Shown in pieces: positions 1,452 to 62,416 of a stretch of DNA of 64,000 nt (its first letter is position 1; each line of letters opens with the position of its first letter). This DNA is from an uncultured bacterium (GTDB lineage: Bacteria > Babelota > Babeliae > Babelales > Vermiphilaceae). Both the position numbers and the translations under genes were made by a program. The notes under the pieces were generated by a model. The model saw only the letters and a program-made list of their open reading frames with translations, searched no databases and had not been told where the DNA came from. The stretch is from contig OY970212.1 in the NCBI GenBank assembly GCA_963713925.1, positions 32,001 to 96,000 on the forward strand, in the 5' to 3' direction.

Positions 1452-1464
1452 GATAATAACATTC

Positions 1465-2256: not shown

Positions 2257-2271
2257 AAAGACCGCATATCT

Positions 2272-3106
2272 ATGAAAAAGCTATTATATTTTTCCACTTT
2301 CATCTTTTCAACTGCCTTTTCATCTGAAATCAATCAACTCACAGCCGAAGTTTTGGGTATGAGTCTTCTTTATCAAAAAATGACCCCGGCAAAAATAGTC
2401 AAATATCAAGCTCTCGCGGGAACAATGCATAAGCCAAGAATTGCTATCATGTGTGAGGATGAAAGATTATACAGAGATCGAATACATCTCTATGAAAAAG
2501 TTCGAGGCATACATGATAAAATACGATACGAGTTACCAGCCTACTTGTGGATGGGGGTATTCATCCGACGTATCATTTCTATGACGGGAAAAGCACGCTA
2601 CGAAGATGTCGTTATGAATGATGGATTTAGAGAAACAATGTTCGTTCTAGCAGATACGCCCATATGGATGGTTCCTCATCCCGAATTTGGAAAACCATCA
2701 TTCAAAATGAATGATCATGTGCAAGTAACTGACAAAGATATTAAATATGCTCTGATAGCCGGAGCAATTGCGGGTGGAAACGCAAATTGCATTTGACAAA
2801 GCAATTATTCCCTCACATGTTGCAAAAGAAATGGCCCACACAACTATCTCTCATCTCATTTGCAATAAGATTAGCGCAGCCATCTACGATTTAAATGGTA
2901 CATACGGAATCGTTAAACCATGGACATCGACTTATTCTATTGCTGCTGCAACAGGAAATGTCGTACTCCCAATTATTATAAGACAATTAGTCGGCACCAT
3001 AATTGGAAGAGCCCCCGTTACAGTTGATGGAGAACTGCTCTATCGGAGCTGGGCTCATGATGATCCAGCAAAAAAGATTAATGTAAAATTTACAATGCCG
3101 CGATAA
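2272..3106 (+). pseudogene. Secreted hypothetical protein, tandem paralog 3, split by a frameshift near 2780
   Basis: ORFs 2272..2796 and 2768..3106 join into one paralog (KDIKYALIAGAIAGG / TQIAFDKAII..ICNKI) if one base is removed from GGTGGAAACG. Confidence 0.65.
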
Positions 3107-3119
3107 CTCACAAGGGTTT

Positions 3120-4016
3120 ATGAAAAAGCTATTATATTTCTTTATTCCGACTTTCTCAATACTCATCGGATCTGAATCGGATCAATTCGAAGCAATATTG
3201 CCACAAATTCGAACGCTATATGCCACAAATCGCTTCAGAGAACAACTGGAGAGAGGATACGAGTACCGCGAAGCATTAAAACAAGAATTACCAAAAAATG
3301 CTTCTGTAAAAACAAGCCTTAAAAAGGCATTGCAAAATATAGTAACGCTGCAAGATATCAAAACGGCGATTATGCCGACAATAGGCGGATATCTCTATGA
3401 CAATCAAAGCGAGCTCATCGCAAACACAAGGCATCTCATTTTTGGCAATGCTCCGCTCATGTCTCGATTGTTTATATGTCATTATAATGGCAAAGATGCC
3501 TTTCCTTGGATAACAAACACTTTTTTTACAACATTGGCACAAAATAAAATTCTCCAATTACGCGGTGAAATTGATACGATTATTCCAAAAAAAGTCACCC
3601 AAAAAATAAATTATTTAAGCCCGTTACTTACCCAAAAAGATATTCTTGATTTGGCGGCGGCCGGAGCTCAGGTGACAGCAAAACAAGCGATCAAACAGCG
3701 CACTATTGCTCCAAAGTTTGATGATCGTATGAAAAAAAAGCTTGCGCTTGCCCTAACTGCTCAATATGCCCACAATAAAACAAAGGATGGACTTAAATAT
3801 CTCAACAAAAAATTTGAAATATATTCTCCGGAGGCGCTGGAAAGTATACTTAACAATGAGATTGTTGATCTCGTACTCTATGCGGGTGTAAACATGTGTG
3901 TTAGAAAGACAGTTACAACATGCTTAAGGATTTCCGATAACGTCAAGATGCAAAGAGAGCGCGCGCGGCAAAGAAGTGCTCGGATAGATCTCTTATGGCT
4001 TCAATCGGAGATTTAA
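3120..4016 (+). CDS. Secreted hypothetical protein, tandem paralog 4
   Basis: MKKLLY signal; SESDQF..LPQIR shared with paralog 2; LSPLLTQKDILD. Confidence 0.75.
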   Translation: MKKLLYFFIPTFSILIGSESDQFEAILPQIRTLYATNRFREQLERGYEYREALKQELPKNASVKTSLKKALQNIVTLQDIKTAIMPTIGGYLYDNQSELIANTRHLIFGNAPLMSRLFICHYNGKDAFPWITNTFFTTLAQNKILQLRGEIDTIIPKKVTQKINYLSPLLTQKDILDLAAAGAQVTAKQAIKQRTIAPKFDDRMKKKLALALTAQYAHNKTKDGLKYLNKKFEIYSPEALESILNNEIVDLVLYAGVNMCVRKTVTTCLRISDNVKMQRERARQRSARIDLLWLQSEI

Positions 4017-18011: not shown

Positions 18012-18821
18012 ATGACTCACATTAAAAAAATAGTTCGCGGCGTCGTATCAGCATCGCTGATATGTTCTATTCCATTATATGCCACAAAATTAGAGAGGGG
18101 ATCTATGAGCGTTTCAAATACCAAAGGATATTTTATACGAAGAGCAAAAGAGCGCGGCCATTTGAGTCATGGGTGGCTCGATACATTCCACACTTTTTCT
18201 TTTGCCGATTATCATGATCCAAACTACATGGGTTTTCGTACCTTGCGCGTTATTAATGAAGACACCATAGCCCCCGGGCAAGGATTCGGCACACATGCTC
18301 ACGACAACATGGAAATCATCACCGTCATGCTCAAAGGGGAAATAGCGCACAAAGACAGCATGGGCAATGAGCACATCATTCATGAACATGAGATTCAAGC
18401 AATGAGCGCGGGCACCGGTGTGCGCCATAGTGAATACAATCCATCAAAAACGAATAGTTCTCACCTTTTGCAAATTTGGATTATTCCTGACACAAAAGGG
18501 ATCAAGCCGCGTTATCAAGAAAAGAAATTGCCTCAAAAAGTAAATACATGGATCTTGCTTGCATCAAAAACAGGTGAACAAGATTCATTGCCGATTCAGC
18601 AGGATGTAAAGTTATACACGCTCAGCTTAGCTCCCGGGAGCACCATAGACAGACAATTGGATGCAAACCGCTATGGCTGGATACAAGTTATGGAAGGTGA
18701 TCTGACTTTAAATGATGAACAGCTACATGCGGGCGATGGCGTTGCGCTCGATCAAGAGCTACGCATAACTCTCAAAGCGGAACAAAAAGAAGCAAAATTG
18801 TTATTTTTTGATTTGAACTAA
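18012..18821 (+). CDS. Pirin family protein (YhhW-like); alternative start at 18105
   Basis: HGWLDTFHTFSFADY, LRVINED, GFGTHAHDNMEI, MSAGTGVRHSEYN, LQIWI. Confidence 0.9.
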   Translation: MTHIKKIVRGVVSASLICSIPLYATKLERGSMSVSNTKGYFIRRAKERGHLSHGWLDTFHTFSFADYHDPNYMGFRTLRVINEDTIAPGQGFGTHAHDNMEIITVMLKGEIAHKDSMGNEHIIHEHEIQAMSAGTGVRHSEYNPSKTNSSHLLQIWIIPDTKGIKPRYQEKKLPQKVNTWILLASKTGEQDSLPIQQDVKLYTLSLAPGSTIDRQLDANRYGWIQVMEGDLTLNDEQLHAGDGVALDQELRITLKAEQKEAKLLFFDLN

Positions 18822-25682: not shown

Positions 25683-26678
25683 TTACTCGGCCCTCATTTG
25701 AACAAACAGCTTATCTAACTTTGCAAAATATGCTTGCGAATGTCGAATTTCGCCTTCCCGGGCTGACGTGAAAATGAGTTTTGGGCTATAGGAAATTTTC
25801 AATTGTGCACGTAGTTGATCAATTAATTCCAATAAGGTAATGCTTTTCCCCGTTGCAACATTATACGCTTGACCATCCAATTGCTCAGTGTCCAAAGCAG
25901 CACAATTAACATTCGTATCAACAACCATATCGACCGGCACAAAATCTCTTGTTTGCAAACCATCTCCGAAAATGGTCAAAGGTTTTTCTTCTTGCAACAA
26001 TTGGGTAAATTTCGCAACAACCCCTGAGTATGGGCTTGAAGAATCTTGTCGAGGCCCAAAAACATTAAAATAACGGAGCGAAATCCCCGGCACACCATGC
26101 ACTCGCGCGTAATAAGCAACCAGCTGTTCTCCGACATATTTTGATAATCCGTAGGCGGAACTTGGTATGCACAGATCTTCCTCGCAGCAAATTCCCTCTT
26201 TATTGCCATACACGGCAGCTGAAGAGGAAAATATGAAACGCGTGACCTTTTTTATCCGAGCTGCCTCTAATATATTCCATGTCCCCCGCACGTTGCTATC
26301 AAAGCAAGTGGGTGGAGATTTGAGTGATTCAACTACTCGTATGTGCGCGGCCAAATGAAAAATAATTTCTTGGCCTTCTGCCGCATCAAGACAGTCTTGT
26401 ATGTTGCAAATATCACCTTGTATACAGCGAACATGTTGCGCAACACCCACAAGGTTTTCATGTTTTCCGGTGCTGAAATTATCAAGGACGCTCACCTGCG
26501 CTCCGAGTGTAACGAGCTTTTCAACCAGATGCGATCCGATAAAGCCGTATCCACCGGTTACCAACACCTTCTTGTTTTTATAATATTCATTGAGATCTGC
26601 GCTCGCCGATTGAGCCCAAGCGGGAATGAAAAGAATAAGACTAAGTAGAATGCTTGAAAACGAAATTTCTTTTTTCAC
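25683..26678 (-). CDS. NAD-dependent nucleotide-sugar epimerase/dehydratase (WbpP/GalE-like) with signal peptide
   Basis: VLVTGGYGFIGSHL, SSSAAVYG, YGLSK, RYFNVFGPRQD; N-terminal MKKEISF..IPAWA. Confidence 0.9.
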   Translation of the reverse strand: MKKEISFSSILLSLILFIPAWAQSASADLNEYYKNKKVLVTGGYGFIGSHLVEKLVTLGAQVSVLDNFSTGKHENLVGVAQHVRCIQGDICNIQDCLDAAEGQEIIFHLAAHIRVVESLKSPPTCFDSNVRGTWNILEAARIKKVTRFIFSSSAAVYGNKEGICCEEDLCIPSSAYGLSKYVGEQLVAYYARVHGVPGISLRYFNVFGPRQDSSSPYSGVVAKFTQLLQEEKPLTIFGDGLQTRDFVPVDMVVDTNVNCAALDTEQLDGQAYNVATGKSITLLELIDQLRAQLKISYSPKLIFTSAREGEIRHSQAYFAKLDKLFVQMRAE

Positions 26679-27595
26679 TACGCACCTCGCGCGATAAATT
26701 TCGGCGTTACTTCCATATGCGCAGCCTCATTTTCAATGCATGCAACGGCATCGATATCAATTTTCAGACCTTCTTTAAAATAATCAAACAACATCTCTAT
26801 TGGGTATCCCATATTACGAGATCCCAACCAATCGGTTTGCACCAAATTAAGCGGCACATTTACTATTTTTGAACGAGTATAGAATAATCCTTTTTTGTGC
26901 ATATCATATGCCGGACCACCGGTTAACCCTCCAGATCGAACAGCCATACACCCTTCAAGCCTGTTTGGAGAGTGGAACGGAATATATGGTATAATCGCAA
27001 GCAAATCAGCCTTGCGATAGATGGTCATGTCTAGACTGCTTGGATATCCCCAATCACCCTTTCCATCTTTAAAAGTGAAGGTATAAGCACCTGCAACTTC
27101 ATCTACCAATTCATGTTGCGGAACAGGAGTTTCAATGTTTTCTGTATAACAGCGGGTTATATTAAGCCCAAGACGCAAATAAAATCCATGCGCTCCCGTT
27201 TTTTCAAGCATTTCTATACATTCGGCACATTTGATTTCATCTTTAACGATAATATCATCAACTCCGAACATAACATATTCATGCGGGCACGATTGCAAGC
27301 ATGCAAGCACTTGCCCTTTATATTCGGCAAAAGGGTCCCTGCCTTGATGTATAATGCCAAGACTTTTATGTTTGAATGTTTCAAAAACGATTTGATATGC
27401 TTGATCAATCTCATCTGAACTTGTTCGATAAATGATAAATATGCGCCCAAGATCTTTCATATGCCGATCAATTGACTCTAAATATGCATATAATTGCATC
27501 GGTCTATCGTAAGATGAAATGATAAGGTCAGCAGTTTTTGCATGCACCATGCCAAAAGATAGTATGGTTATGAGCATCATTATTTTTTTAAACAT
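26678..27595 (-). CDS. Putative GT-A fold glycosyltransferase with signal peptide
   Basis: SSYDRPMQLYAYLES, MFGVDD, FYLRLG, WGYP.SLD, PNRLEG; MFKK..VHA signal. Confidence 0.6.
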   Translation of the reverse strand: MFKKIMMLITILSFGMVHAKTADLIISSYDRPMQLYAYLESIDRHMKDLGRIFIIYRTSSDEIDQAYQIVFETFKHKSLGIIHQGRDPFAEYKGQVLACLQSCPHEYVMFGVDDIIVKDEIKCAECIEMLEKTGAHGFYLRLGLNITRCYTENIETPVPQHELVDEVAGAYTFTFKDGKGDWGYPSSLDMTIYRKADLLAIIPYIPFHSPNRLEGCMAVRSGGLTGGPAYDMHKKGLFYTRSKIVNVPLNLVQTDWLGSRNMGYPIEMLFDYFKEGLKIDIDAVACIENEAAHMEVTPKFIARGA

Positions 27596-27598
27596 TAC

Positions 27599-28621
27599 TT
27601 ACTCCTGGTTTTTTTGGGGCCCCATCGACAAGGGCGTACTACTATACTGAATATTATTTTTAAAATAAGGAACTCCGTACTGCCCAGCAGCCAATCCAAG
27701 CCATTGAGCACCTTCTTTGAGATCATAATCAAGGCGCGATTGATAAATCGCCGTTGAATGATTCAACCAATACGAATCAACTCTTCCATCCGCATTCGGC
27801 CAATAGATATTGGTGTGAAATGGAACAGTGCGATCTTTCAACTTCAGTTGCAGCCATCCGGGTCTATAAACATGCAGTCCTAGCAACCTCGCGCAAATGC
27901 TCCACAATGCCTGGTCATGCCGCGCTCCACCAAAGCCCCATCCGGCCGATCCATCGTCTTCAAAATAGCGTATGTCTTTTGTCATTTCATACATGGGAAG
28001 AATGAGCTTTTCATACACAGCTTTGGTGCATCCAATAATATTGGCACTCAGAGATATTGTATTGAGAATATGTTGTCGTTCGGGCGTATCAAGCCCAAAT
28101 TGAGTTCTGACAAATCGAGTAGTGCAGTTGTTTAAATCATGAAAGACGCTGACAAGGAAATAACCGTTGTATGCTATATGCTCAAACAGCTCTTCAAGTG
28201 ACCGCATCACGGTGTTCCCGGCATCCATATATAAAACGGTATCAAAACGATCAAGAGTTTGTTTGATGATTACCGGCTTCCATGCATACCAACCGGGAAC
28301 CGTCTTGCCCTCGTTTCTTGTCACCATTGGTTTGAGAAGATCCGGATGCGTGAGCTCAACATGAGCAAGCTCAACTTTGGCCATATCGCTCAAAGATGCT
28401 CTTTCTTCGTGACTAAGCCCTATATCATACACCACAATTCGATTTAATCGATCAAAATCAACTCGATGAATACTGCCGATAAGATTTAACACCGGCTTAA
28501 AGTAGGAACTGTTTGCCGCAGTACAAATGACCATGTTTGCGTTCACGGTACACATCTGCAAACAGATGCTCAACACAATAAAGATGTTCCAAGGGAAATG
28601 ACGGATATATAGATGCTTCAT
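27599..28621 (-). CDS. Putative glycosyltransferase (DUF1647-like) with signal peptide
   Basis: TAANSSYF, VYDIGL, YAWKPVII, LYMDAG, RHDQA; signal ending VNA. Confidence 0.65.
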   Translation of the reverse strand: MKHLYIRHFPWNIFIVLSICLQMCTVNANMVICTAANSSYFKPVLNLIGSIHRVDFDRLNRIVVYDIGLSHEERASLSDMAKVELAHVELTHPDLLKPMVTRNEGKTVPGWYAWKPVIIKQTLDRFDTVLYMDAGNTVMRSLEELFEHIAYNGYFLVSVFHDLNNCTTRFVRTQFGLDTPERQHILNTISLSANIIGCTKAVYEKLILPMYEMTKDIRYFEDDGSAGWGFGGARHDQALWSICARLLGLHVYRPGWLQLKLKDRTVPFHTNIYWPNADGRVDSYWLNHSTAIYQSRLDYDLKEGAQWLGLAAGQYGVPYFKNNIQYSSTPLSMGPQKNQE

Positions 28622-28632
28622 TCTCCGTTACC

Positions 28633-29379
28633 TCAAAAGCGGACTGCCGCCTTATCCTTTTCAAGCGCCATTAATATTTTCGGCAACCAAAAATATTCTT
28701 TGCATTCGGGATAACAATAGGCGCTTGAAAGAATTTTAGTTGGTGGATTATCAATAAAATAGCGATTGATATGACTTTCATCATGCCATACGGCAATAAA
28801 ATTTTTTTTCAGGTCGGTGATAATATTTTCAGAACAAGTGCGAACTAATTTGAGAAATTCTGCAGTCTTGCCGCCATACAAACCTCCTGCAAAATACCGT
28901 TCACCTCGATTGTTTGCTACGTAGGCGGTTGAAACCGAATTTTCTTCGTAGGTATATTGATTGCGAATCATATTTTGAAAATAAGGATGTTGGGTGCCGA
29001 CCAAGTCGCCCAAAATTTCATCTCCCGCATCATTCACAAAGAGCATGTCCACGTCTGAAGCAAAAATGTAATCGTATCCATCAAATAACGATGCTGCTTT
29101 ACAATAGTTTTCAAATCTAAAAAGTGTTACATATGGCCATGGCAAATGAGCAGTCGGGACAACCACCACATCTGGTGACGATTGCACATCTTGTGCGCGA
29201 TCGGTGAATACAAAGTAAGTGACTTCATGATTTTTCAAAAAATGTTTGCGGCAGGAATCAACAAACGGCTGTATGAACTGCGTATATTTGTTGGTTGCTG
29301 CAAAACAAAGACCAACTTTGGCCGCATTCATGAAGTTTGCGCTCGAGGCAAAAGCTATCATTACCATTATCTTTTTCAT
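28633..29379 (-). CDS. GT6 family (ABO-like) glycosyltransferase with signal peptide
   Basis: ATNKY, YFVFTD, WPYVTLFRF, DVDM, YFAGGLYGG, AVWHDESHINRY. Confidence 0.9.
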   Translation of the reverse strand: MKKIMVMIAFASSANFMNAAKVGLCFAATNKYTQFIQPFVDSCRKHFLKNHEVTYFVFTDRAQDVQSSPDVVVVPTAHLPWPYVTLFRFENYCKAASLFDGYDYIFASDVDMLFVNDAGDEILGDLVGTQHPYFQNMIRNQYTYEENSVSTAYVANNRGERYFAGGLYGGKTAEFLKLVRTCSENIITDLKKNFIAVWHDESHINRYFIDNPPTKILSSAYCYPECKEYFWLPKILMALEKDKAAVRF

Positions 29380-29855
29380 AACTGTTCCTTTTGTGGTTCT
29401 CGCGGCTTCCCCCAGCTCCTGAAGCTTCCCCAGCATTCTCCACGAGCACTTTTTCTCTTCTCATAATCATGATTAATTGCTATCCCCAGCGCAACAACAA
29501 CTGCCGCCAACCCCATGACGCCCCGCACTCCCCCAAGTGCTGTTGCCGTACCAAAGCCGACCAGCCCCCCAACAATCAACGAACCACCCTTATCTATCTC
29601 AGCAAAGAAGTAGGTTGCCAGAGAACCAGTAATCATTCCAATCGGCACTGAAACTATAACATCCAAAGCTTCAGGTTTAGACGGGGAAAAATACTCTTGA
29701 GAGCAGCTATTGTGAAATCGTTTTTGTAATTGCGACTTTTGTAATCGAGAAATGATCTTTTTTTTCGCTTCAATACCAAGTGCTCGTTGCATCATAGCAT
29801 GCGTTGATTGAAATATGCAAAAGATACCGAGTATCAAAACATTGGCTTTTTTCAT
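29376..29855 (-). CDS. Hypothetical membrane protein with Gly-rich helices
   Basis: AAGGAG RBS, signal peptide, stop overlaps GT6 start. Confidence 0.6.
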   Translation of the reverse strand: MKKANVLILGIFCIFQSTHAMMQRALGIEAKKKIISRLQKSQLQKRFHNSCSQEYFSPSKPEALDVIVSVPIGMITGSLATYFFAEIDKGGSLIVGGLVGFGTATALGGVRGVMGLAAVVVALGIAINHDYEKRKSARGECWGSFRSWGKPREPQKEQL

Positions 29856-29948: not shown

Positions 29949-31616
29949 TTAGAGCGGTTGTTTAATGATCTCTTTTTGTATAAAATCTCCGATTATTTTT
30001 TTCTCCGGAAAATCACCGACTTTAGAAAAGACTCTCTCTTGTAGGCTCGCTATATTGCCTAAATGATCCTTGTTTTTTGAAATAAAAGAAAGCATGAGTG
30101 TGACTTCCAAAGGCAATTTCTTTGGAGGCACCGCCCATATTTTCACGTCACTGCCGGCAACGGCAAACATGTCACCCTTTGAAGAGAAAGCAACTGAGTG
30201 AACGGGCCCCTCCTTCTTGAACTGATGCAAAAACGGTTCACCCGAGACGCCCCATAGGTCTACGGAATGAAAATCCGCAGGATAGGAGGCAATCGCCGTA
30301 TCATCGTGAGAAAATTCAATTAAAATAGGGCTTAATTCACGTCTACGATCGCCTGCTTCCAGATTGAAAGATCTCGAAGCACCCGTCTCAGTATTCAATA
30401 CTTTCAATTCATTATCATACGAAAGGATGGCGAATTTTTTCCCATCATGTGAAAGAAGAATAGATTTAACTCCGCCTTTATGATTAAAGGAACGGATAAT
30501 CTTGCCCTTTTTTACTTCCCATAATTCACATAATTTACTATCGCCGGCCACGCAAGCGGTAGCAAATAGCGCCCCGTTGGACGAAAGAGACGTCGAAAGA
30601 GCAGAACCATCATAATTAAAGGCACTCAAAACCTCCCCCGTGCCTACATTCCATAGTCTCACAACGTAATCATCAGAATCAGTGATGAGTATTTCTAGTT
30701 GGTTCGCCCCATCATTAGGCAAAAAGGCGACTGACCAAACGTGATCCGAATTAGACAATTCACGCAAAAGCTTTCCGTTCCCCGCATCCCAAACTTTTAC
30801 GACACGATTAGATTGATCGATCGGATAAAATTTGGAAAAGTAAGCGGAACAAAAAGTGGCAAGCTTTGCTCCGTTGTGAGAAAAGATAGCAACCAAATTG
30901 AAACTTCTGCCTCCTACATGATTGAAGGTATGTAAAACCCTTCCCGTCTCGATATCCAATAGCTCCGTAGGACGACGGGGAGAATTTATGGCAATTGTTT
31001 TATCGTCAGGCGAAAAAACCATTGCAGTAATAGGGCCGGAATGAGCAAGTATACGTTGTGGGGATTTGCTAAAGGCATCAAAAAGCAATTTTTTAACTTC
31101 TGTCGTTCGCACTATACGTTTGCTTATGGAATTCAACAATTCTTCCGGCATATCCAATGATTCAACAAAATTTTCTTCCTGCGCGAAATTTTGAAGAGTT
31201 TTCCTTAAGCAAATCAATTCGGAAAGACGATCCGCAACGAGAGGGCGTACCGGTTTTTTAACATCAAAATAATTGACGACCTTAAACAATTTTGCTGTTT
31301 CGTTAAGATTCAGTGATTTTATTTTTTTTTCAATCTCTTTTTTCGCGAGATCTTCATTCCCTCGTCTTTCATGCACAATTTCCATAAGCGGGTAAAGCTT
31401 ATCGAAAAAAAGAGTGCCGGGAACACTCTGAATTTCTATCCGCCCGCCATTGTCTCCGAAATCTTCGATCATGGTTTTGATGAGGTTCGATATTCTGATC
31501 ACATCGCCATTAACCGATTTTTCAATGCCTCCTATGACAACAGTAGTATCATTGCCATCGGCTGATCTGATGGAAGGAACAAACATACAACAAAGAAACA
31601 ATAAGGCTTTTTTCAT
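29949..31616 (-). CDS. Secreted Skp1/BTB-like + WD40-repeat protein
   Basis: Signal peptide; SNLIKTMIEDFG and LFKVVNYFDVK resemble Skp1; repeats H..V.SVAFS..G..VKVWD. Confidence 0.8.
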   Translation of the reverse strand: MKKALLFLCCMFVPSIRSADGNDTTVVIGGIEKSVNGDVIRISNLIKTMIEDFGDNGGRIEIQSVPGTLFFDKLYPLMEIVHERRGNEDLAKKEIEKKIKSLNLNETAKLFKVVNYFDVKKPVRPLVADRLSELICLRKTLQNFAQEENFVESLDMPEELLNSISKRIVRTTEVKKLLFDAFSKSPQRILAHSGPITAMVFSPDDKTIAINSPRRPTELLDIETGRVLHTFNHVGGRSFNLVAIFSHNGAKLATFCSAYFSKFYPIDQSNRVVKVWDAGNGKLLRELSNSDHVWSVAFLPNDGANQLEILITDSDDYVVRLWNVGTGEVLSAFNYDGSALSTSLSSNGALFATACVAGDSKLCELWEVKKGKIIRSFNHKGGVKSILLSHDGKKFAILSYDNELKVLNTETGASRSFNLEAGDRRRELSPILIEFSHDDTAIASYPADFHSVDLWGVSGEPFLHQFKKEGPVHSVAFSSKGDMFAVAGSDVKIWAVPPKKLPLEVTLMLSFISKNKDHLGNIASLQERVFSKVGDFPEKKIIGDFIQKEIIKQPL

Positions 31617-40928: not shown

Positions 40929-42290
40929 TTAACAAATGATTTCATTTTTCTCTATCGCCTTATCCCGTTGGCCTGAAATTGCCAGAGCGATCACAATCCA
41001 CACACACAACAAAGTAAAGCTCCCAAAAGATGTAAGTTGAAAGAAAAGGAGGTTGCCAAGCGTATATCTTGAAAGCCCGGTCAACGACCCAAATGCCTTC
41101 GCTCCTCCAAGGCCAAACGTTTCTATCCAGGTCTGGCTCTGATACTTCACATCAGTTGTAGTGGGAATATACAGTTGCTTAATTGAAGGGGCGTTTAAAG
41201 AATAATTAACTGCTTTTGCAATGATGAGCGCAACCATGACAACAGTAATAGTTGGCACAAAATAAAACAGCATCAATGCGCCAATCGTGCAGATAAATGC
41301 CACGATAAATGCGTTTCGTATCCCATATATTCTCTGAACATTATTAATACCAAATAAGAGAAGTAAGAAGGTGACTACGTTAATTCCAAGCGCATACCGC
41401 GACAAAAGAGCGGACGCTCCTTCAATATTTGAAAATGAGGAGAATACCATCGTTTTGAAATTGAGATCGAGGGTGGTGATTACATATTCAAAAAAAAGAA
41501 CGAGCAGGGCTATCCCCGTCAAATATTTATACATCCAAATAAGTTTAAAGCCTTCCAGTAAGCCCAACTCTTTTCGATGAGCCACTTGTGCGCTCGCAGT
41601 TCCGTGATAACCTTCCATGCTTTTTTTTGAAATGGTTGAAACAAGAACATGCATAATGCCCGCCGCTAGAAGAAGAAAGAGGAATGCGCACCCGATAAAC
41701 GCGATTTGTGAAACATGTAATGATGACCGTAAGGCAGACAATGCCGATGGTATAACAATGCCGCCAAACTGTCCCAGCATGACAATAAAACCGAATCCTT
41801 TTCGAGCCTCGGCCTGACTTGAAACATCAACAACAAATGCCCAAAAAGTGGCGACAACAAGAGCATTAAAACTCTCAACGCAGAGAAACCATAACCATCC
41901 CGACCAATAAAAAGGACTTGGAACACCAGCGAACTGGTTGAAAGAAAAAAAGAGAAAAAAAAGGAGAAAGAGAATGGAATAGAGCGTGGTAATAATATAA
42001 AAGGCGGTTGCTTTTTGATACCGATTTAAAACCCGTCCATATACAATCGTACTCGGAATTAAAACCAATAGCGCGATAATGCGCGCCCAAATAAAGTAAC
42101 TTTCACGCGCTTGACGGTCAGCACATGAGGCAAACCCTATAATTCGCTCACAAAAAAGGGTATCTCGCACCGGCATCAACGACCACATAATGCCTACGAT
42201 AATGGCAAATATGCTCCCAAGAAGCGTAAATTTATATAGTTCTTGATCGGTGAAGTTACCGTAATATTTTTTAATGAATCCAAAAATCAT
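40929..42290 (-). CDS. Nucleotide (ATP/ADP) translocase, Npt/TLC family MFS
   Basis: About 12 TM; VRDTLF, FWAFV.D, KAVNYSLNAP..QLYIPT..VKYQSQTWIE. Confidence 0.85.
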   Translation of the reverse strand: MIFGFIKKYYGNFTDQELYKFTLLGSIFAIIVGIMWSLMPVRDTLFCERIIGFASCADRQARESYFIWARIIALLVLIPSTIVYGRVLNRYQKATAFYIITTLYSILFLLFFLFFSFNQFAGVPSPFYWSGWLWFLCVESFNALVVATFWAFVVDVSSQAEARKGFGFIVMLGQFGGIVIPSALSALRSSLHVSQIAFIGCAFLFLLLAAGIMHVLVSTISKKSMEGYHGTASAQVAHRKELGLLEGFKLIWMYKYLTGIALLVLFFEYVITTLDLNFKTMVFSSFSNIEGASALLSRYALGINVVTFLLLLFGINNVQRIYGIRNAFIVAFICTIGALMLFYFVPTITVVMVALIIAKAVNYSLNAPSIKQLYIPTTTDVKYQSQTWIETFGLGGAKAFGSLTGLSRYTLGNLLFFQLTSFGSFTLLCVWIVIALAISGQRDKAIEKNEIIC

Positions 42291-42453: not shown

Positions 42454-44001
42454 ATGAACAAAATATCCAATCAAAATATCTTCTTTTTCATCTTACTTTC
42501 TCTGTATTCGTATAATATATTCGCTGGATTTCCCGCAGGAACACCGGTTAAAACAACAAGTGGATATCAGCCAATTGAAACAATCAAATCAGGCCACCAT
42601 CTTACCTCGTATGATACAAATGCGGGCTTTATTGAAAATCGAGTAAATTTTTCTTGGGCACAAGCTACCGACATATGCATTGTTATCCATTATCTTGAAA
42701 CTGAACTGATTTCAAACGCAAAACAACAGTTTTATCTTCCTGAATCGGCTTCATGGGTTGCGGCACGTGAGTTAAAGCCAGGCGACAAATTGCTTTCGGC
42801 AAAACATGGACATATCGTCATTGATGCAGTTGAACAACTTCCTTTTGCAGGGTTTACTCATTGTGTACGCTTTGATAATATTCACAATTTTTGTGTATCG
42901 CACGATGACATCGTCACGCATAATAGCGCCGGCCTTACATGGAAAATGAGACTCTGGCCCCCTCCAACTCCTCTTGAAATCGGGCTAGGAGTTCTTTTTA
43001 CTGTTGGCGCAATTGTTGTAAGAAAAATCATGACCAATTTTGGGGCCCATGAAGATACGCATGGAAAAGATGGTGTTTATCGCGGGAATCAACATCTTGC
43101 TGATTTGCGATATCAATACAACCCTGAAACTGATTTTGATAATCCATATGCATATTATCACCACAAGCAAGAAACTGAGGGCTATTATAATCCAAATTAC
43201 GAACATTCTTCATCTTTCCTCAACAACGATGATATTTCTGCTCATAATGAAACGTACACAGGGCATCTTCATAATGAAGCTATCGCTCAAAACATATATC
43301 ATCAAAAAGTGTCCTCAACCCAAAATATTCCACCTGCGATTAGCATAGAGCCTTCAGTCGACAACAATGCGTTACAATCGGCTCAAGCTCCCACCCAAAC
43401 TTCGATTACCACAATTTCAGGTCTTAATACTGAAACTGCATACTGTCCGACAACAATTCCTGATCCGGAGGTTCGAAAACAGCCACATGGCTGCCCAACC
43501 CCGCCACCTCCTACACCAACTCACACCGGCGGAGAGCAAATACCAAAACACGAACCAACTATTTTTGTAACACCGACACAACCACCTCAAGAAAAACCAA
43601 CCGGTTGTTATCCACTTCCGTGGCCGGAAGGAACATCCTCCGGACTTATTCTCAAGCAAGAAATTACACGAGAGAGACCTGCTGCTCAAGGAGGTAAAAT
43701 AAAAACAGTTGACGACATTCTTAAAGACGCAGAACCATTTACTGACAATAAGAAGCGATCTGATCAAGGACGAGCCGACATCTATGTAAAGCCGGGAGGT
43801 TTTGATGATGCATTGCAAGATTTTGAATCGCTGGGGCCAACAAATATTAGAGAGATACGTAACGGTAATAAGGGAAAAGTTGGGGATTTGCCTGATGGAA
43901 GAACCGCAAATGTTCGAGTCAAGAGCGACGACGGAAGAGCGACACTCGAAATTTATAATCCAGTTGATGAGAAAAGTATAAAAATTAGATACGGAGAATA
44001 G
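42454..44001 (+). CDS. Sec-signal Hint-domain polymorphic toxin with C-terminal toxin domain
   Basis: Signal ..NIFA then GFPAGTPV; HNFCVSHDDIVTHN; TM helix; Pro-rich linker; KPGGFDDALQDF..LPDG..VR..S..TLEI..KIRY tip. Confidence 0.8.
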   Translation: MNKISNQNIFFFILLSLYSYNIFAGFPAGTPVKTTSGYQPIETIKSGHHLTSYDTNAGFIENRVNFSWAQATDICIVIHYLETELISNAKQQFYLPESASWVAARELKPGDKLLSAKHGHIVIDAVEQLPFAGFTHCVRFDNIHNFCVSHDDIVTHNSAGLTWKMRLWPPPTPLEIGLGVLFTVGAIVVRKIMTNFGAHEDTHGKDGVYRGNQHLADLRYQYNPETDFDNPYAYYHHKQETEGYYNPNYEHSSSFLNNDDISAHNETYTGHLHNEAIAQNIYHQKVSSTQNIPPAISIEPSVDNNALQSAQAPTQTSITTISGLNTETAYCPTTIPDPEVRKQPHGCPTPPPPTPTHTGGEQIPKHEPTIFVTPTQPPQEKPTGCYPLPWPEGTSSGLILKQEITRERPAAQGGKIKTVDDILKDAEPFTDNKKRSDQGRADIYVKPGGFDDALQDFESLGPTNIREIRNGNKGKVGDLPDGRTANVRVKSDDGRATLEIYNPVDEKSIKIRYGE

Positions 44002-44004
44002 GAT

Positions 44005-44412
44005 ATGACTGAACAGTGGGAGCGCTGGGATCCAATGCCTGGGTTGCTAAAAAAATATTATGCCGAAAAAGTTATAGAAACTCCGAATGGATTCTCATTG
44101 ATGCTTATTGGATACGAAAAGAATCAAGAAAGTGAAATTTTGCTTGATTTTGGAAAATCGGTCAAGGCATACAGAAACGTTTATGAAACCTTTCGCGATA
44201 ACCTTATCATAGATTTGGATGAAAAATACGGAACAGGTTTCTATGGAGAGTGGACCTTTTTTAAAGTCAAAAATTCAGAGTATTTCAATCTTATCGAAAA
44301 AAAGTTTCTTGGAACCTCTCCAAATGCGTCCTTTTCACATTTTTGTTTGATCTTGGCAGAATCGGTTATCGATATTATAGCTTACGATGAACCAAAAATT
44401 ACCGTGTTATAA
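44005..44412 (+). CDS. Putative cognate immunity protein
   Basis: Begins 3 nt after toxin stop; EQWERWDP, WTFFKVKNSEY, HFCL. Confidence 0.75.
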   Translation: MTEQWERWDPMPGLLKKYYAEKVIETPNGFSLMLIGYEKNQESEILLDFGKSVKAYRNVYETFRDNLIIDLDEKYGTGFYGEWTFFKVKNSEYFNLIEKKFLGTSPNASFSHFCLILAESVIDIIAYDEPKITVL

Positions 44413-44431
44413 AAATGATTGGATCAAAATC

Positions 44432-44848
44432 ATGATATCCGAAAATTGGGAACGATGGGAACCGTTACCAAGCCTTTGCACAAAGTACTCCTTAGAAAAA
44501 ATAATAGAAGAAGGGGAAGTTTCTATAGTATTATCCGGTCACAAAAATGAGACAAGTAGAATCTTGCTAAAGATTAGCCGTCTGTTCGCCTATACAGTGA
44601 CGAAAAATTCATTCGACGATAAACTTTTTAACGATTTACAAGAAAAATACGGCCCTGAATTTCATACCACTTGGACCTTTTTCAAAGTCAATAATTCTGA
44701 TTTTATCAAATGGATTGATCAAGAATCATCCACTATTGCGTCCAGTTGGGCAAGGGAAGAAAAACCTATGCAACATTTTTGTTTGATTACCATGGAAGAA
44801 GTTATAGACATCATGGTGTACGGTGAACCAAAAATAACTCGGCTGTAG
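44432..44848 (+). CDS. Paralogous (orphan) immunity protein
   Basis: ENWERWEP, WTFFKVNNSDF, HFCL..EPKIT: clear paralog of 44005..44412. Confidence 0.75.
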   Translation: MISENWERWEPLPSLCTKYSLEKIIEEGEVSIVLSGHKNETSRILLKISRLFAYTVTKNSFDDKLFNDLQEKYGPEFHTTWTFFKVNNSDFIKWIDQESSTIASSWAREEKPMQHFCLITMEEVIDIMVYGEPKITRL

Positions 44849-50080: not shown

Positions 50081-51292
50081 ATGGCATTATATTTTTACAA
50101 AGCGCTATCAAAAGATGGAAAGCGAGTCTCTGGACAGCTTGATGGTACCTCTGTAAATAATGCCAAAGAACAACTCGTTGCACGCGGCCTTTATCCAACC
50201 GAAGTACTTTCTGCCCAAGAACGAGCCGCATCGAGCTGGTGGCGGTCACTCTTTATCAAAGGTTTTAAGCTTAAGCAAAAAATTTATTTCACGAATCAAC
50301 TTATTGTTTTGCTCAAAGCAGGAATTCCACTTTTACAAGCGCTTGAATTGTTAACCGATCAGTTTAGCGGTTCATTACGGCAAATGCTCATTGCTATCAA
50401 AGATGATGTAAAACAAGGTACTTCCTTTGCGCAAGCAATTGCCCAATACCCCAAAAGTTTTGATTCTATTTATGTCCAACTCGTGCGCGCCGGAGAAGCG
50501 AGCGGTAAATTGGAAGTGGTTTTGGAACGATTAGTTGCATATCTTGAACGTAAGCAAGAAACATCAAAGCGCATCAAAGATGCCTTGATGATGCCAATTA
50601 TTCAGCTTGTGATTGCCGTTATCGTCACTGGCGTCATGCTTTATTTTGTTGTCCCCCAAATGGCAGAAACATTCACAAAAATGGGGACCAAACTTCCTGC
50701 TATTACAGAATTTGTCATGAAAATCTCTAACGGGTTGCGATCATATTTTCTACCAATACTGCTTGTTATCGGCGCTGTGATTGGGATTTTTTTCTACTGG
50801 AAATCAACGCCGAACGGAAAATATGCACTTGATGTCATAAAGCTTAAAATTCCGGGAGTTAGCTATTTTGTGCGCATGAATGCGGTCGTACAATTTTGTT
50901 ATACGCTCGGGCTGTTGCTTCAAAACGGTGTCAATTTAGCGGAAGCACTTGATATTGTAGTGCGTATTGTTAATAACCAAATTTTAGCGCAAACATTAAG
51001 CCAAGCGCGCGATAAAATCATCAAGCAAGGTAAAATTTCTGCCTACTTAAAACAAACAGAGTTATTTCCCCCTATGGCAATTTATTTAATTAATACGGGA
51101 GAACAATCGGGGGAGTTAGATACAATGCTTTTGAATGTTGCTCGAAATTATGAGGGAGAATTAATTGGCTGGACAGACTCTTTAACAGCTCTCATAAACC
51201 CAATAATGTTGGTATTTATGGCGCTCATAGTAGGGTCAATTATTGCAGCAATTATGCTACCAACATTCAGTGTGATGGATAATATTAAATAG
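50081..51292 (+). CDS. gspF: Type II secretion/type IV pilus inner-membrane platform protein
   Basis: AGIPLLQAL, AGEASGKL, TGEQSGELD, INP. Confidence 0.92.
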   Translation: MALYFYKALSKDGKRVSGQLDGTSVNNAKEQLVARGLYPTEVLSAQERAASSWWRSLFIKGFKLKQKIYFTNQLIVLLKAGIPLLQALELLTDQFSGSLRQMLIAIKDDVKQGTSFAQAIAQYPKSFDSIYVQLVRAGEASGKLEVVLERLVAYLERKQETSKRIKDALMMPIIQLVIAVIVTGVMLYFVVPQMAETFTKMGTKLPAITEFVMKISNGLRSYFLPILLVIGAVIGIFFYWKSTPNGKYALDVIKLKIPGVSYFVRMNAVVQFCYTLGLLLQNGVNLAEALDIVVRIVNNQILAQTLSQARDKIIKQGKISAYLKQTELFPPMAIYLINTGEQSGELDTMLLNVARNYEGELIGWTDSLTALINPIMLVFMALIVGSIIAAIMLPTFSVMDNIK

Positions 51293-51328
51293 TGCATGAG
51301 TACAATAGTATTTTTTTGAAAGGATATT

Positions 51329-51742
51329 ATGAATAGTGTTGCTCACAAATCGTCCCTTCGTCAGGGATTTACCATTATCGAAATTACGATCGTACTTTTA
51401 ATAATTGGTATAATCGGTGGACTTCTTCTCATGAGACAACGTGGCGGCGGGGAAAGAGCGGCTCGTTTGGTTGTTACAAAACAACTACAACAAATTCAAG
51501 CTGCTCTCGATTCTTATGAACAAGATATGGATGGATATCCTGAACAGCTAAGCGATTTATGGACTCCGCCAAGTGACCAAGAAAAAGCAAACAAATGGTC
51601 TGAATATATCTCCAAACCGAAAGTTCCTGCCGGATGGAAGCCATATATTTATGAAAAAACAGAAGGCAGCGAGCGTCCATATGAACTAAGAGCTGTAAGA
51701 AAAGATGGCAAAGGCACAATCAATGCCGCGACTATGGAATAA
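51329..51742 (+). CDS. gspG: T2SS major pseudopilin GspG-like
   Basis: GFTIIE prepilin motif; ALDSY..D..YP. Confidence 0.75.
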   Translation: MNSVAHKSSLRQGFTIIEITIVLLIIGIIGGLLLMRQRGGGERAARLVVTKQLQQIQAALDSYEQDMDGYPEQLSDLWTPPSDQEKANKWSEYISKPKVPAGWKPYIYEKTEGSERPYELRAVRKDGKGTINAATME

Positions 51743-52307
51743 AAAACCCCAAGCATGGATTAAAGATGACCCTCAAAGGCCCGGTTTATACCCGGGCTTC
51801 ACCCTTATTGAAATTATTTTGGTAATCGGAATAATTGGGGTTATGGGTGGGCTTTTTTTACCATCTCTTTTCAGGCAGAAGCCAGACAAAGAAAGACGCA
51901 ACTTTATTGCATCACTCAATCATCTGACAAGTGTTGCTGTACGCAATGGCGCACGGACCGGAAAAATTCAACGTGTTTTATTTGAAATCAGGGAAAGAAA
52001 AATTAGTATCGATGAAGTCGAAAAGCCTGAACGTGGGGATCAAAAAATGGTGACGCGCCCGATCAAAGGAGCTTCACTTTCATCAATCAAAATCCCAAAA
52101 AACATCGATATTACGCGGTTTAGCATCGAAGGCATAAATGAATTTGAAGGTGGGGCGCGTGAAAGGGTCTGGTTTTTCATAATGCCAAGCGGCATTTCCC
52201 AAGACGTGCTCATCACGCTGGTAGACAAAAAAGACAAACGGGGCGGCAAAGCGCGCGTTGTTAATCTCAGTCTCAACCCGTTGCGCTCGGAATGGTTGGT
52301 GGTATGA
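51723..52307 (+). CDS. T2SS minor pseudopilin GspH-like
   Basis: GFTLIE; FFIMPSG; gene order. Confidence 0.7.
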   Translation: MPRLWNKKPQAWIKDDPQRPGLYPGFTLIEIILVIGIIGVMGGLFLPSLFRQKPDKERRNFIASLNHLTSVAVRNGARTGKIQRVLFEIRERKISIDEVEKPERGDQKMVTRPIKGASLSSIKIPKNIDITRFSIEGINEFEGGARERVWFFIMPSGISQDVLITLVDKKDKRGGKARVVNLSLNPLRSEWLVV

Positions 52308-52672
52308 AAAAAATGTTTGCTGGATTCACACTCATCGAAGTGATGCTCACCCTCATGATCGTCTCTCTGACAATCGGCCCGCTCTACGCACTTTATTCAA
52401 CTGTTATCAACTCCTTTACTCGCCGCACCAGAACATATGAATCTCTAACAACTGCGTATTCTGAGCTTTTACGAGTAAGCGTTCAAAAAGAAATCAAAGA
52501 ACGACAAACTCCCGAGCTCACGTTAAAACGAATTACTCCCACAACTTCTTTGAAAAATGTCGAAGCGATTCAAGCGTGGCAAGCGATCGTCAATTGGAAA
52601 GATCGAGGCGCAAGCCGAAAAGGCTCATTGGTCATGTATATAAATAAGAAGTCACCTAATGAGAGTAAATAA
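52304..52672 (+). CDS. T2SS minor pseudopilin GspI-like
   Basis: GFTLIEV; gene order. Confidence 0.7.
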   Translation: MKKMFAGFTLIEVMLTLMIVSLTIGPLYALYSTVINSFTRRTRTYESLTTAYSELLRVSVQKEIKERQTPELTLKRITPTTSLKNVEAIQAWQAIVNWKDRGASRKGSLVMYINKKSPNESK

Positions 52673-53696
52673 ATTAATAGCCTTCTTCAAATGTCAAAAT
52701 GGCCTGTCACGCCATAGCTCGCCATTGCTTGAAAAGCTATCGCGTAGCGACGGCGGAAGAGTGCGCTCCGGTTTCACACTAATCGAAATGATGATCGTGC
52801 TCATGCTCAGCGCAATCATTATTGGCATTATGCTCTCGAGTTATGGTCAACTGCAAAAAGCAACGCGTAGATTTGATTCACGCGTTGATCTGGAATCAAG
52901 CATTTTGGCAATAGCATCATTATTTGAGCGTGACGTATCCGGCGCCTGTATTCCGTTGCAATCATATCAAGCAGAAAAAGAGAAAAGAGCCGAAGAATCC
53001 CGTAAGAAGCAAGATCAGAATTCAGCCACTCAATCTTCACAACAAAAGGGCGGCGCAAAACCTTCACCTAATAATGCTCCCAAACAAGGTGACGAAAAAG
53101 AATCGCAACAAAAAACTCCTGAAGTAAAAGCAATTTTTTATGCAGAAAAAGGCGAAAAAGATATCACGAATCTTTTCACCTGCATCACCAACAATCCTTT
53201 GGATATTTACTGGTCTGAGGGTGCAGGACGTGCAAAACCGAAAATTGCGCGCGTAGTATTCCGATTGAAAAAAAATGAACGAGCGGCACAAGCGCCGTAC
53301 AGTCTCTGGCGGCAAGAAGGTCCTGATTTTGATTATCCATCCTACACAAAATCAGATTCTCAATATCGACAATATCTTGTCTCCGATATGATTTCCAAAT
53401 TTGCACTTACGTTTTATTCACACAAAACTGATAAAGAAGGCAAGACGCAAGAAGAAGTTTCTAAGCTGGAATATGGCAGCAATCAAGAAGTGAGTTTAGA
53501 GCTACCACAATTGGTAACTCTGGATATCACCGCGTATGATCCGAGGCAAAAACGAAGCCAATCATTTTCAATGACTTATCGCGTTTGGGGACAGCCGATT
53601 AAGATTGAAGAATCCGCCTCCACCAAGGCTACGGCGGGACAGGGCAGCCAAAGCGGCGACAAAGATGAAAACAAGGGTAAACCGAGACCACAGTAA
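52659..53696 (+). CDS. T2SS minor pseudopilin GspJ-like
   Basis: GFTLIEMM, FERDVS, LWRQE, LPQLV; unusually long leader. Confidence 0.7.
   Translation: MRVNKLIAFFKCQNGLSRHSSPLLEKLSRSDGGRVRSGFTLIEMMIVLMLSAIIIGIMLSSYGQLQKATRRFDSRVDLESSILAIASLFERDVSGACIPLQSYQAEKEKRAEESRKKQDQNSATQSSQQKGGAKPSPNNAPKQGDEKESQQKTPEVKAIFYAEKGEKDITNLFTCITNNPLDIYWSEGAGRAKPKIARVVFRLKKNERAAQAPYSLWRQEGPDFDYPSYTKSDSQYRQYLVSDMISKFALTFYSHKTDKEGKTQEEVSKLEYGSNQEVSLELPQLVTLDITAYDPRQKRSQSFSMTYRVWGQPIKIEESASTKATAGQGSQSGDKDENKGKPRPQ
52702..52759 (+). repeat. REP-like family C unit in the gspJ-like leader
   Basis: TGTCACGCCATAGC..TAGCGACGGCGGAA ends identical to the copy at about 53905-53935. Confidence 0.75.
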
Positions 53697-53728
53697 GGTA
53701 ATGCATGTTCTGTAGAGTTTTTAAAAAT

Positions 53729-53951: not shown

Positions 53952-53963
53952 CGGAAACGAGAA

Positions 53964-62404: not shown

Positions 62405-62416
62405 AAATAAGTTTTG

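Follow-up and report, generated by a model that had tools for sequence, protein, structure and literature searches.

Four closely packed genes in a 64,000-nucleotide stretch of bacterial DNA (the window) encode enzymes of glycan synthesis, each preceded by a leader resembling an export signal. Bacterial surface glycans are normally built from cytoplasmic nucleotide sugars and carried out on lipid carriers, and periplasms are taken to be devoid of nucleotide-sugar donors and NAD(P)H. The locus raises the question of whether such enzymes leave the cytoplasm and, if they do, on what they would work. An earlier note on this DNA had proposed an exported pathway fed by host nucleotide sugars, an interpretation that, as a whole, the present analysis partly supports. 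The source genome (G000), 95.75% complete and in one contig, is Babeliales-like (Dependentiae); it belongs to a small bacterium with relatives that inhabit protist cells.

Composition of the four-gene locus

The row of adjacent leader-bearing genes exists as the note described it: minus-strand ORFs fill positions 25683-29379 of the window, and their families and leaders were confirmed, with one exception among the family names (see below). The features are:

28633-29379, minus strand: GT6 gene with leader (PF03414, E 2.5e-51)
27599-28621, minus strand: gene 2, GT-A fold glycosyltransferase with leader (AlphaFold model and fold comparison)
26678-27595, minus strand: gene 3, GT-A fold glycosyltransferase with leader (AlphaFold model and fold comparison)
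25683-26678, minus strand: NAD-dependent NDP-sugar 4-epimerase with leader, GTG start (PF01370, E 1.8e-53)
29376-29855, minus strand: leader-bearing ORF of no family (4-nt overlap with the GT6 start)

From GT6 through genes 2 and 3 to the epimerase, the genes are separated by gaps of 11 and 3 nt, then overlap by 1 nt. The ORF at 29376-29855 may be co-transcribed with the GT6 operon; a family search assigned it to no family, and no glycan role was shown. Scanning the locus for promoters and terminators gave no more signals than in shuffles. The four-gene order was not seen conserved in the relatives' loci examined, where genes of the three glycosyltransferase families are often only a few kb apart. 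A longest contig of 25,678 is common to the top homologues P0005, P0125 and P0243, a hint of linkage only.

The GT6 protein scores 174.8 bits against PF03414 (cut-off 25) and 210.9 against NF041524, below the cut-off of 250. It aligns to BoGT6a (4ayj) and to the human ABO transferase with E about 1e-40, and in this alignment keeps the DVD, YFAGG (YYAGG in BoGT6a) and WHDESH motifs. PaGT6, from the DxD clade, transfers GalNAc to the H antigen, according to the portion of PMC3516806 available. Because the AGG motif is common with BoGT6a and PaGT6 has this activity, the protein is predicted to be a metal-dependent alpha-1,3-GalNAc transferase for Fuc-alpha1,2-Gal acceptors.

Genes 2 and 3 yielded confident AlphaFold (AF2) models (pLDDT 94.0 and 93.4, respectively), both with a GT-A fold combined with conserved acidic donor-site residues. 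In gene 2 homologues D105 and R206 are invariant and H207-D208-Q209 near-invariant (mature numbering); those bearing names are nearly all from Babeliales/Dependentiae. Fold comparison (VIA) of gene 2 returned WbbM (Z 15.5, rmsd 3.9, 235 aligned), LgtC (15.4), Skp1 galactosyltransferase (15.3) and UGGT (15.2), placing its predicted activity closest to the retaining enzymes of GT8 type. The DUF1647 label given earlier is not borne out, as the match (17.9 bits, E 0.0028) falls below the Pfam gathering cut-off of 25.7; gene 2 is filed neither as DUF1647 nor, despite its GT8-like fold, as GT8. Gene 3 belongs to no Pfam family, and its TIGR04440 match (E 4e-6) is below cut-off. Its homologues carry an invariant DD at mature positions 94-95, and its fold matches (VIA), namely GnT-I (Z 13.8, rmsd 3.7, 194 aligned), TarS (13.6), POMGnT1 (13.2) and MGAT2 (13.1), suggest an activity nearest to inverting GlcNAc transferases. 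Gene 3 is matched in 25 of the 36 genomes from the same family and in 4 of 24 others.

The fourth protein is an extended SDR with Rossmann, SSSA and YxxxK motifs, the Ser/Tyr/Lys triad being kept. Its nearest PDB matches are 6wjb/6wja, which we take to be PelX, followed by WbpP and WbgU; its best NCBIfam scores are below cut-off (TviC, 168 against 760; GalE, 158 against 262). It is predicted to be a WbpP/WbgU-type epimerase converting UDP-GlcNAc to UDP-GalNAc.

Build, base rate and distribution of the leaders

Leaders were called by a hydropathy rule devised for this analysis and by reading by eye. The rule flags 582 of the 1247 ORFs of G000, 513 of them without a later transmembrane helix, as against 136 of 4342 internal-Met controls; by this rule, leaders occur on 41-47% of G000 proteins. 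Runs of at least four leader genes number 19 in the genome (shuffled mean 8.6), and the chance of all four given genes bearing a leader is 0.029. Because the base rate is so high, four leaders in a row are on their own weak evidence for export. The significance of the leaders lies in which proteins bear them.

All four leaders have an n-region of charge +1 or +2 followed by a hydrophobic stretch of 9-15 residues. They are built like those of the G000 OmpH, TolB, WD40 and one ankyrin protein, and are shorter than the 20-25 residue anchors of this genome. By eye, purine runs resembling Shine-Dalgarno sequences precede the leader starts and none precede later in-frame ATG or GTG codons; between the epimerase leader and the first beta strand there is no in-frame start that could be used. 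The AxA-type ending attributed to all four was found, as (A/V)-x-A, in three. The GT6 leader is the weakest and its -3 residue is non-canonical; a GT6 homologue 85% identical (P0242) has a clear leader. Apart from this atypical position, the four proteins fit the features of Sec/signal peptidase I substrates as judged by our rule and by eye: positive n-region, short hydrophobic core, small -3/-1 residues and translation from the leader start. G000 encodes leader-bearing glycosyltransferases, SDRs and Ugd together with SecA, SecY, SecD, SecF, YidC and signal peptidase I (peptidase S26); TatC was not found in the genome.

The earlier proposal depended on conservation of the leaders across orthologs, which holds for the three glycosyltransferases. 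A leader is present in 108 of 120 database homologues of GT6 (self included), in 13/13 stand-alone Babeliales copies and in four homologues named as chlamydial, and in none of the 51 scorable viral copies; the viral enzymes lack one because their synthesis takes place in the cytosol. Gene 2 has it in 44 of 45 scorable metagenome copies and gene 3 in 20 of 24 (by rule). Conservation is patchy for the epimerase: 51 of 118 homologues bear a leader, of which 33 also retain an internal Met close to the domain. Database homologues and one leaderless locus (L110) here represent most of the orthologues in the 60 relatives. The eight closest homologues are all leader-bearing and none has a nearby internal Met. 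From the homologue comparison, the idea that leader epimerases are dead paralogues was not accepted.

Several other candidates were considered and set aside. That all cytoplasmic enzymes of G000 have leaders was not upheld by a scan of flagged proteins of at least 170 aa (419 of 442, first 380 aa each), most of which have no family; in the flagged housekeeping enzymes GroEL, MurA, CTP synthase, DnaN, SecA and LDH, the domain begins at the N-terminus. Cysteines, a possible mark of periplasmic life through disulfide gain, are not enriched (2.8 against 2.5). An exported phosphomutase was not accepted, an internal Met being present, nor was an exported GlmU: its internal Met lies behind a purine-rich run, and no more than 3 of 30 genomes, G000 among them, have the leader-like extension, each time with an internal Met downstream. 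Such extensions can thus appear on an enzyme that the cytoplasm requires.

Glycan genes in the genome and in its relatives

The four genes had been taken to form a complete glycan pathway. They are instead a satellite module of a 16-gene cluster at G000:C1:147471-163537, in which 15 genes have leaders. This second cluster holds a paralogue of gene 3 (44%). Throughout G000, leaders are present on all four nucleotide-sugar SDRs (PF01370), on Ugd and on all five GT2s; GalU has none, nor has it in any of seven relatives. A candidate fucosyltransferase (G000:C1:157509-158399), whose sequence presumably resembles GT11 motifs, matches PF01531 in 1 of 10 members (E 0.019), a weak match that does not establish its identity and leaves the fucosyltransferase needed for the GT6 acceptor weakly supported.

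Searches of G000 found no initiating phosphoglycosyltransferase (PF02397), Wzx (PF01943), GT-C (PF13231), GT4 (PF00534) or LpxC, and no Wzy or Wzm family among 87 multi-spanning membrane proteins, of which 26 were assigned to no family and might include an unrecognised flippase or polymerase. Thus, no conventional export route for a cytoplasm-made glycan was found, which speaks for exported enzymes. GDP-fucose enzymes are encoded, and ManC was not found, leaving no detected way to make GDP-Man.

The relatives bear on this point. ManC is present in 17/17 genomes with a leaderless GMD, as against 9/17 with leader GMDs only, its absence being confined to genomes whose GMDs all bear leaders (8/17 against 0/17). 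GT-C follows a similar pattern (9/17 against 1/17). Both comparisons treat kin as if independent and leave out G042, whose GMD N-terminus is unreadable. The leader GMDs were not taken for dead paralogues: they keep their motifs (YxxxK in 26/26, QASxSE in 25/26), and 13 of the 26 lack any start codon close to the domain. On the question of a single origin of the GMD leader, a quick tree requires eight changes between leader and leaderless states (shuffled 13.6), and a 22-row group in it (SH-aLRT 80) holds 20 leader copies. ManC itself is often leader-bearing in relatives and lies beside a leaderless GMD in mixed clusters of G002, G018, G028, G031 and G036; several relatives keep a leaderless ManC-GMD module adjoining GT-C.

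These data permit an assessment of the view that the leaders anchor the proteins in the membrane or are extensions without a function, the working enzymes facing, or being made in, the cytoplasm. The base rate, the sporadic GlmU extensions, the patchy leaders of epimerase, Fcl and ManC, the mixed clusters and the eight tree changes all suit it. However, the cores are short for anchors and have positive charge in front, many of the enzymes have no alternative start, and leaders are near universal on three glycosyltransferase families and absent from viral GT6. Moreover, a cytoplasmic GMD would have no GDP-Man unless imported, no glycan exporter was recognised, and the flagged housekeeping enzymes start their domain at the N-terminus. 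We regard this view as improbable.

Site of action and comparison with known systems

The explanation we favour, with confidence a little short of even, is that glycan enzymes with predicted Sec signals act beyond the cytoplasm on nucleotide sugars and cofactors probably supplied by the host, the periplasm or the cell surface being the most likely site. The enzymes would cross the inner membrane unfolded, be cleaved, and acquire NAD+ and metal on the far side. The host's UDP-GlcNAc, UDP-Glc, GDP-Man, NAD(P)H and SAM would arrive by the route that feeds the TLC transporters with host nucleotides; G000 has four of these transporters and two porin-like proteins. By homology, the epimerase would supply UDP-GalNAc and the second cluster GDP-Fuc and UDP-GlcA/UDP-Xyl; GT-A enzymes would lengthen the chain and GT6 would place alpha-1,3-GalNAc on a fucosylated galactose, the predicted product being an A-antigen-like, further methylated glycan. 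In the least supported step, the acceptor would be the envelope of the bacterium itself, a cell without detected LpxC. Against export stand the patchy epimerase leader, the mixed clusters and the GlmU extensions.

The donors could conceivably come from the bacterium: in a Golgi-like periplasm, a nucleotide-sugar transporter of the inner membrane would feed the exported enzymes with UDP-Glc and UDP-GlcNAc at the least. G000 has GalU and GlmU in its cytoplasm, and possible transporters are an EamA-family protein, the four TLC carriers and the 26 membrane proteins without a family; EamA shares its superfamily with the nucleotide-sugar transporters of eukaryotes. Yet GDP-Man (no ManC) and NADPH/NAD+ turnover are left unexplained, the EamA gene adjoins neither glycan cluster, and ManC is often leader-bearing in relatives. 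This arrangement appears most improbable.

A second step by type II secretion, allowed for in the earlier note, is not required by the argument, since four TLC-family nucleotide transporters imply that host nucleotides reach the periplasm. With such a step, the enzymes would reach the host cytosol or the lumen of the vacuole and act there as effectors, glycosylating components of host or vacuole, or the bacterial surface from outside. Two secretins and two GspF proteins in G000 could form a type II system or a type IV pilus; in the part of PMC4378268 available, type II is the sole secretion system reported in Babela. WD40 and ankyrin proteins, bound to act on the host, bear the same kind of leader; Fcl and Ugd, as NADPH/NAD+ users, are most easily supplied in the cytosol; and Chlamydia GlgA in the inclusion provides a precedent (PMC4829429, in the portion available). 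Nevertheless, a multi-step pathway with methyl-, pyruvyl- and possibly acyltransferases is more like surface-glycan clusters than single-target effectors, the four proteins have no fused repeat or targeting domains, and exporting donor-making enzymes would add little in a cytosol where the host already makes several donors. We consider the effector role unlikely, if a serious contender. Sequence alone does not separate periplasm, vacuole lumen and host cytosol as the site. Babela lives in a vacuole (PMC4378268, in the part available), which would place an extra membrane between host cytosol and periplasm.

Extending the favoured explanation, we tentatively suggest that Babeliales and some environmental Chlamydiae may have moved a whole glycan factory out of the cytoplasm: a lipid-carrier-free "periplasmic Golgi" that draws nucleotide sugars, NAD(P)H, GTP and SAM from the host, laying a blood-group-A-like coat on an LPS-less cell, with ManC lost once GMD was exported. 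A phylum-wide switch to exported soluble nucleotide-sugar enzymes would, if true, constitute another route to envelope glycans and a new metabolic parasitism, and would account for part of the unexplained Dependentiae secretome and for the coat of an apparently LPS-less Gram-negative. The observed pattern, in which ManC is lost only with leader GMD, yields a direct evolutionary prediction. The two GT-A families without a name offer new enzymes for characterisation, and cultured relatives make the idea testable.

Lipid-carrier surface-glycan pathways (Wzx/Wzy, ABC, GtrB/GT-C) likewise cluster glycosyltransferases with epimerase, GMD/Fcl, Ugd and tailoring enzymes. G000 differs from them in the leaders on its glycosyltransferases and in having no detected initiating transferase, Wzx, Wzm, GT-C or LpxC.

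The high leader share (about 45% here) is already published for the phylum (PMC6561590; PMC4378268). As far as the available text of these papers goes, the secretomes of Chromulinavorax destructans and Babela massiliensis have 44% signal-peptide proteins, against 41-47% here by our own rule, and share with G000 Sec and type II secretion, ankyrin/repeat proteins and nucleotide transporters. The proteins treated there are proteases, nucleases and ankyrins; within that text "glycosyl" and "sugar" do not occur in PMC6561590, "glycosyl" occurs once in PMC4378268 (DNA glycosylase), and exported glycan pathways appear in neither. In the literature searched, no description of an exported, leader-bearing glycan pathway was found.

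The G000 enzymes would work like the secreted glycogen system of Chlamydia trachomatis and are not filed under it. There too, a cytoplasmic-type carbohydrate enzyme, GlgA, is exported to use host nucleotide sugar, but by type III secretion, for one storage homopolymer and with UDP-Glc used as supplied (PMC4829429, in the portion available). Here, by contrast, there are Sec-type leaders, many glycosyltransferase families and NAD(P)-dependent donor-remodelling enzymes, and PF00534 was not found.

The prokaryotic GT6 DxD clade (PaGT6 of Parachlamydia, cyanophage P-SSM2), BoGT6a and human GTA have the same minimal domain with DxD, AGG and WHDE (PMC3516806), and A-antigen synthase activity is the predicted common function. 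The G000 enzyme has a predicted cleavable leader, whereas viral copies and BoGT6a have none and the vertebrate enzymes have an uncleaved Golgi anchor. Finally, giant-virus and large-phage glycan clusters run their own glycosyltransferases and nucleotide-sugar enzymes on host metabolite pools. These clusters operate in the host cytosol; for the bacterium, access to such a pool would depend on the export of its enzymes.

The four-gene module and its leaders

The module consists of almost contiguous open reading frames on one strand:

28633-29379, minus strand: gene 1, GT6 (PF03414, E 2.5e-51)
27599-28621, minus strand: gene 2, DUF1647 match below cut-off only
26678-27595, minus strand: gene 3, no Pfam family
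25683-26678, minus strand: gene 4, NDP-sugar SDR (PF01370, E 1.8e-53)

The Pfam matches substantiate the GT6 and SDR assignments of an earlier note on this DNA. The DUF1647 likeness of gene 2 stays below cut-off, its AlphaFold model (pLDDT 94.0) adopting a GT-A fold, as does that of gene 3 (93.4), which the note had called GT-A-like. The gene 2 model is closest to GT8-type retaining enzymes (WbbM, Z 15.5; LgtC, 15.4), and the gene 3 model to inverting GlcNAc transferases (GnT-I, Z 13.8; TarS, 13.6). WbpP/WbgU-type enzymes are the closest relatives of the epimerase, and the GT6 retains DVD, BoGT6a's AGG motif and WHDESH. The tight packing and the leaders (predicted Sec-type export signals) described in the note were both borne out. 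All four proteins begin with a positive n-region followed by a 9-15 residue hydrophobic core, resembling leaders that this genome (G000; a single 1.32-Mb contig, 95.75% complete) has on OmpH, TolB and WD40 proteins. Purine-rich runs lie ahead of the leader starts, with none ahead of the downstream in-frame starts. The genes' named relatives are from Ca. Babeliaceae, Babeliales or Dependentiae, labels on which the lineage placement depends.

Leader conservation among orthologues, a check proposed in the note, held for GT6 (108 of 120 database homologues, self counted), gene 2 and gene 3 (20/24 by rule), and not for the epimerase (51/118, 33 of the 51 retaining an internal Met close to the domain). 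The eight closest epimerase homologues all carry a leader, with no internal Met near the domain. For gene 2, a loose rule gave 111/120, including at least four false calls on truncated proteins, and 44 of 45 scorable metagenome copies are positive (a further 9 are cut and 6 fused). The GT6 leader is present in 13/13 stand-alone copies in Babeliales loci and in 0/51 scorable viral copies (4 more are cut, 1 fused). Four of the 108 leader-bearing database homologues carry chlamydial names (P0258, P0265, P0278 and P0337, labelled Algichlamydia, Simkaniaceae and Chlamydiales), so environmental Chlamydiae may have the trait too.

Leader-bearing proteins elsewhere in the genome

Leaders were called with a home-made hydropathy rule and inspection by eye, not SignalP. 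The rule was positive for 582 of 1247 G000 ORFs versus 136 of 4342 internal-Met controls, a rate near the 44% published for Chromulinavorax (PMC6561590, in the portion available). Because of this high base rate and of 19 runs of at least four leader genes (shuffled mean, 8.6), four consecutive leaders are ordinary in G000; the informative question is which proteins bear them. All four PF01370 enzymes and all five GT2s do, and GalU is leaderless. Of the 442 flagged proteins of at least 170 aa, 419 underwent a family scan, and most were without a family or were envelope proteins or repeat proteins of eukaryote type. Core housekeeping proteins in the flagged set, whose domain begins at the N-terminus, were rejected as false calls. 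Clear leaders on further cofactor-dependent enzymes (four GNATs, a thioredoxin reductase, a PLP enzyme, an SDR) suggest that the outer compartment sees cytosolic cofactors. Leader-bearing Pirin (window 18012-18821), thioredoxin reductase (G000:C1:729360-730853), GNAT (743024-743623), PLP (748820-749986) and PPDK-like (827504-829639) enzymes, likewise cofactor-dependent, are predicted to be extracytoplasmic.

The earlier note had inferred a complete glycan pathway at the locus. Leaders on glycan enzymes are a real, lineage-wide feature, of which the window carries one satellite module; a larger cluster lies elsewhere (cluster 2, L032, G000:C1:147471-163537), with leaders on 15 of its 16 genes. 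It encodes a UXS-like SDR, Ugd, GMD, Fcl, four GT2s, two methyltransferases, a gene 3 paralogue and a weak candidate fucosyltransferase. None of the relatives' loci examined shows the module's arrangement of four genes. Near cluster 2, two GH130-like genes and a polysaccharide pyruvyl transferase gene, all with leaders (L033, G000:C1:168320-172111), adjoin a VTT/DedA membrane protein, possibly a lipid flippase.

Other arrangements were noted in passing. Five related tandem leaderless ORFs (109-118 aa) following a 662-aa gene (G000:C1:173965-175697) resemble an immunity-protein array. At window 42454-44848 and 59295-62893, long ORFs with leaders precede groups of two or more small ORFs that lack one, a layout reminiscent of polymorphic toxin-immunity loci. 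Four paralogous leader ORFs without a family, starting MKKLFY/MKKLLY, occupy window 600-4016.

Leaders on sugar-nucleotide enzymes of relatives

Loci from 39 genomes were compared (G042 was dropped), with GMD classes taken from the GMD loci examined. Leaders are frequent on GMD, Fcl, Ugd and even ManC, and one WecB has a leader by eye. ManC occurs in 17/17 genomes with a leaderless GMD versus 9/17 with leader-only GMDs (Fisher 0.003), and GT-C, often adjoining ManC, in 9/17 versus 1/17 (0.007), counts in which kin are non-independent and some genomes incomplete. Leader GMDs retain catalytic motifs. The pattern fits two putative modules: the older would be cytoplasmic and lipid-linked, the other exported, soluble and able to dispense with ManC. 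Contrary to this, a leader ManC adjoins a leaderless GMD in five genomes, the poorly supported GMD tree requires 8 leader-label changes, and no cysteine gain was seen. Clusters with one leaderless and one leader-bearing GMD, motifs intact, are L101 (G036), L103 (G002), L104 (G016), L105 (G028), L113 (G031) and L122 (G012). In G051, Fcl is seemingly fragmented (L107:7873-8538) alongside a leaderless GMD and ManC.

Three of 30 genomes (G000, G011, G053) encode a GlmU with a leader-like extension, each time ahead of an internal Met, and some leader-like extensions may therefore be incidental or yield two forms. In G000 (L208, G000:C1:1140380-1141951) purine-rich runs precede both starts, and GlmU is possibly a two-start, two-compartment enzyme. 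That the module's leaders are anchors or incidental extensions we consider unlikely, the GT6 and gene 2 leaders being so widely kept.

Donor supply, probable export and comparison with known systems

No ManC was found in G000, PF00483 matching GalU and GlmU only, which leaves GMD and Fcl without a recognised internal GDP-mannose source; self-supply of donors by the bacterium, which does encode GalU, appears very improbable. Searches of G000 found no initiating phospho-GT, GT4, GT-C, LpxC, TatC or Wzx, and no Wzy/Wzm family was named among 87 multi-TM proteins (26 without family). A glycan made in the cytoplasm would thus have no recognised exit route. G000 encodes SecA, SecY, SecDF, YidC and signal peptidase I, together with two secretins (genes at G000:C1:1265603 and 1270345), two GspF, four TLC nucleotide carriers (one at window 40929-42290), one EamA and two porin-like proteins. 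At window 50081-55124, GspF precedes several prepilin-like genes, a module belonging either to type II secretion or to a type IV pilus.

Most likely, the enzymes would cross Sec, be cleaved and acquire NAD+ and metal outside, TatC not having been found. Host nucleotides reach the inner membrane, to judge by the four TLC carriers, so nucleotide sugars need not be lacking in this periplasm; type II secretion is possible, not required. Delivery of the enzymes into the vacuole or host cytosol, for which that machinery could serve, is a lesser and rather doubtful prospect. The WD40 protein at window 29949-31616, which has a leader and shows a weak Skp1/POZ-like match at its N-terminus (E 0.0004), is likely host-directed; G000 encodes several of its kind. 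We tentatively favor exported enzymes building a glycan on the bacterial envelope; export in some form is probable, given the weights assigned to the competing readings. The epimerase would supply UDP-GalNAc and cluster 2 GDP-fucose. PaGT6, a DxD-clade relative of the GT6, is metal-dependent and transfers GalNAc to H antigen (PMC3516806, in part), and the predicted product would be an A-antigen-like, methylated glycan.

No account of exported glycan pathways in Dependentiae emerged from the main texts covered, among which subscription journals were thinly represented. The sections available of two secretome papers (PMC6561590, PMC4378268) do not mention glycan enzymes, and those of PMC11495043 add nothing further; Additional file 9 of the Babela paper (PMC4378268), a list of predicted signal peptides, may bear on such enzymes. 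In Chlamydia, type III-secreted glycogen enzymes act on host UDP-glucose (PMC4829429, in the text accessible). The babelial system would resemble this secreted glycan synthesis in being fed by host donors, and would differ from it in using another export route and in exporting a whole pathway.
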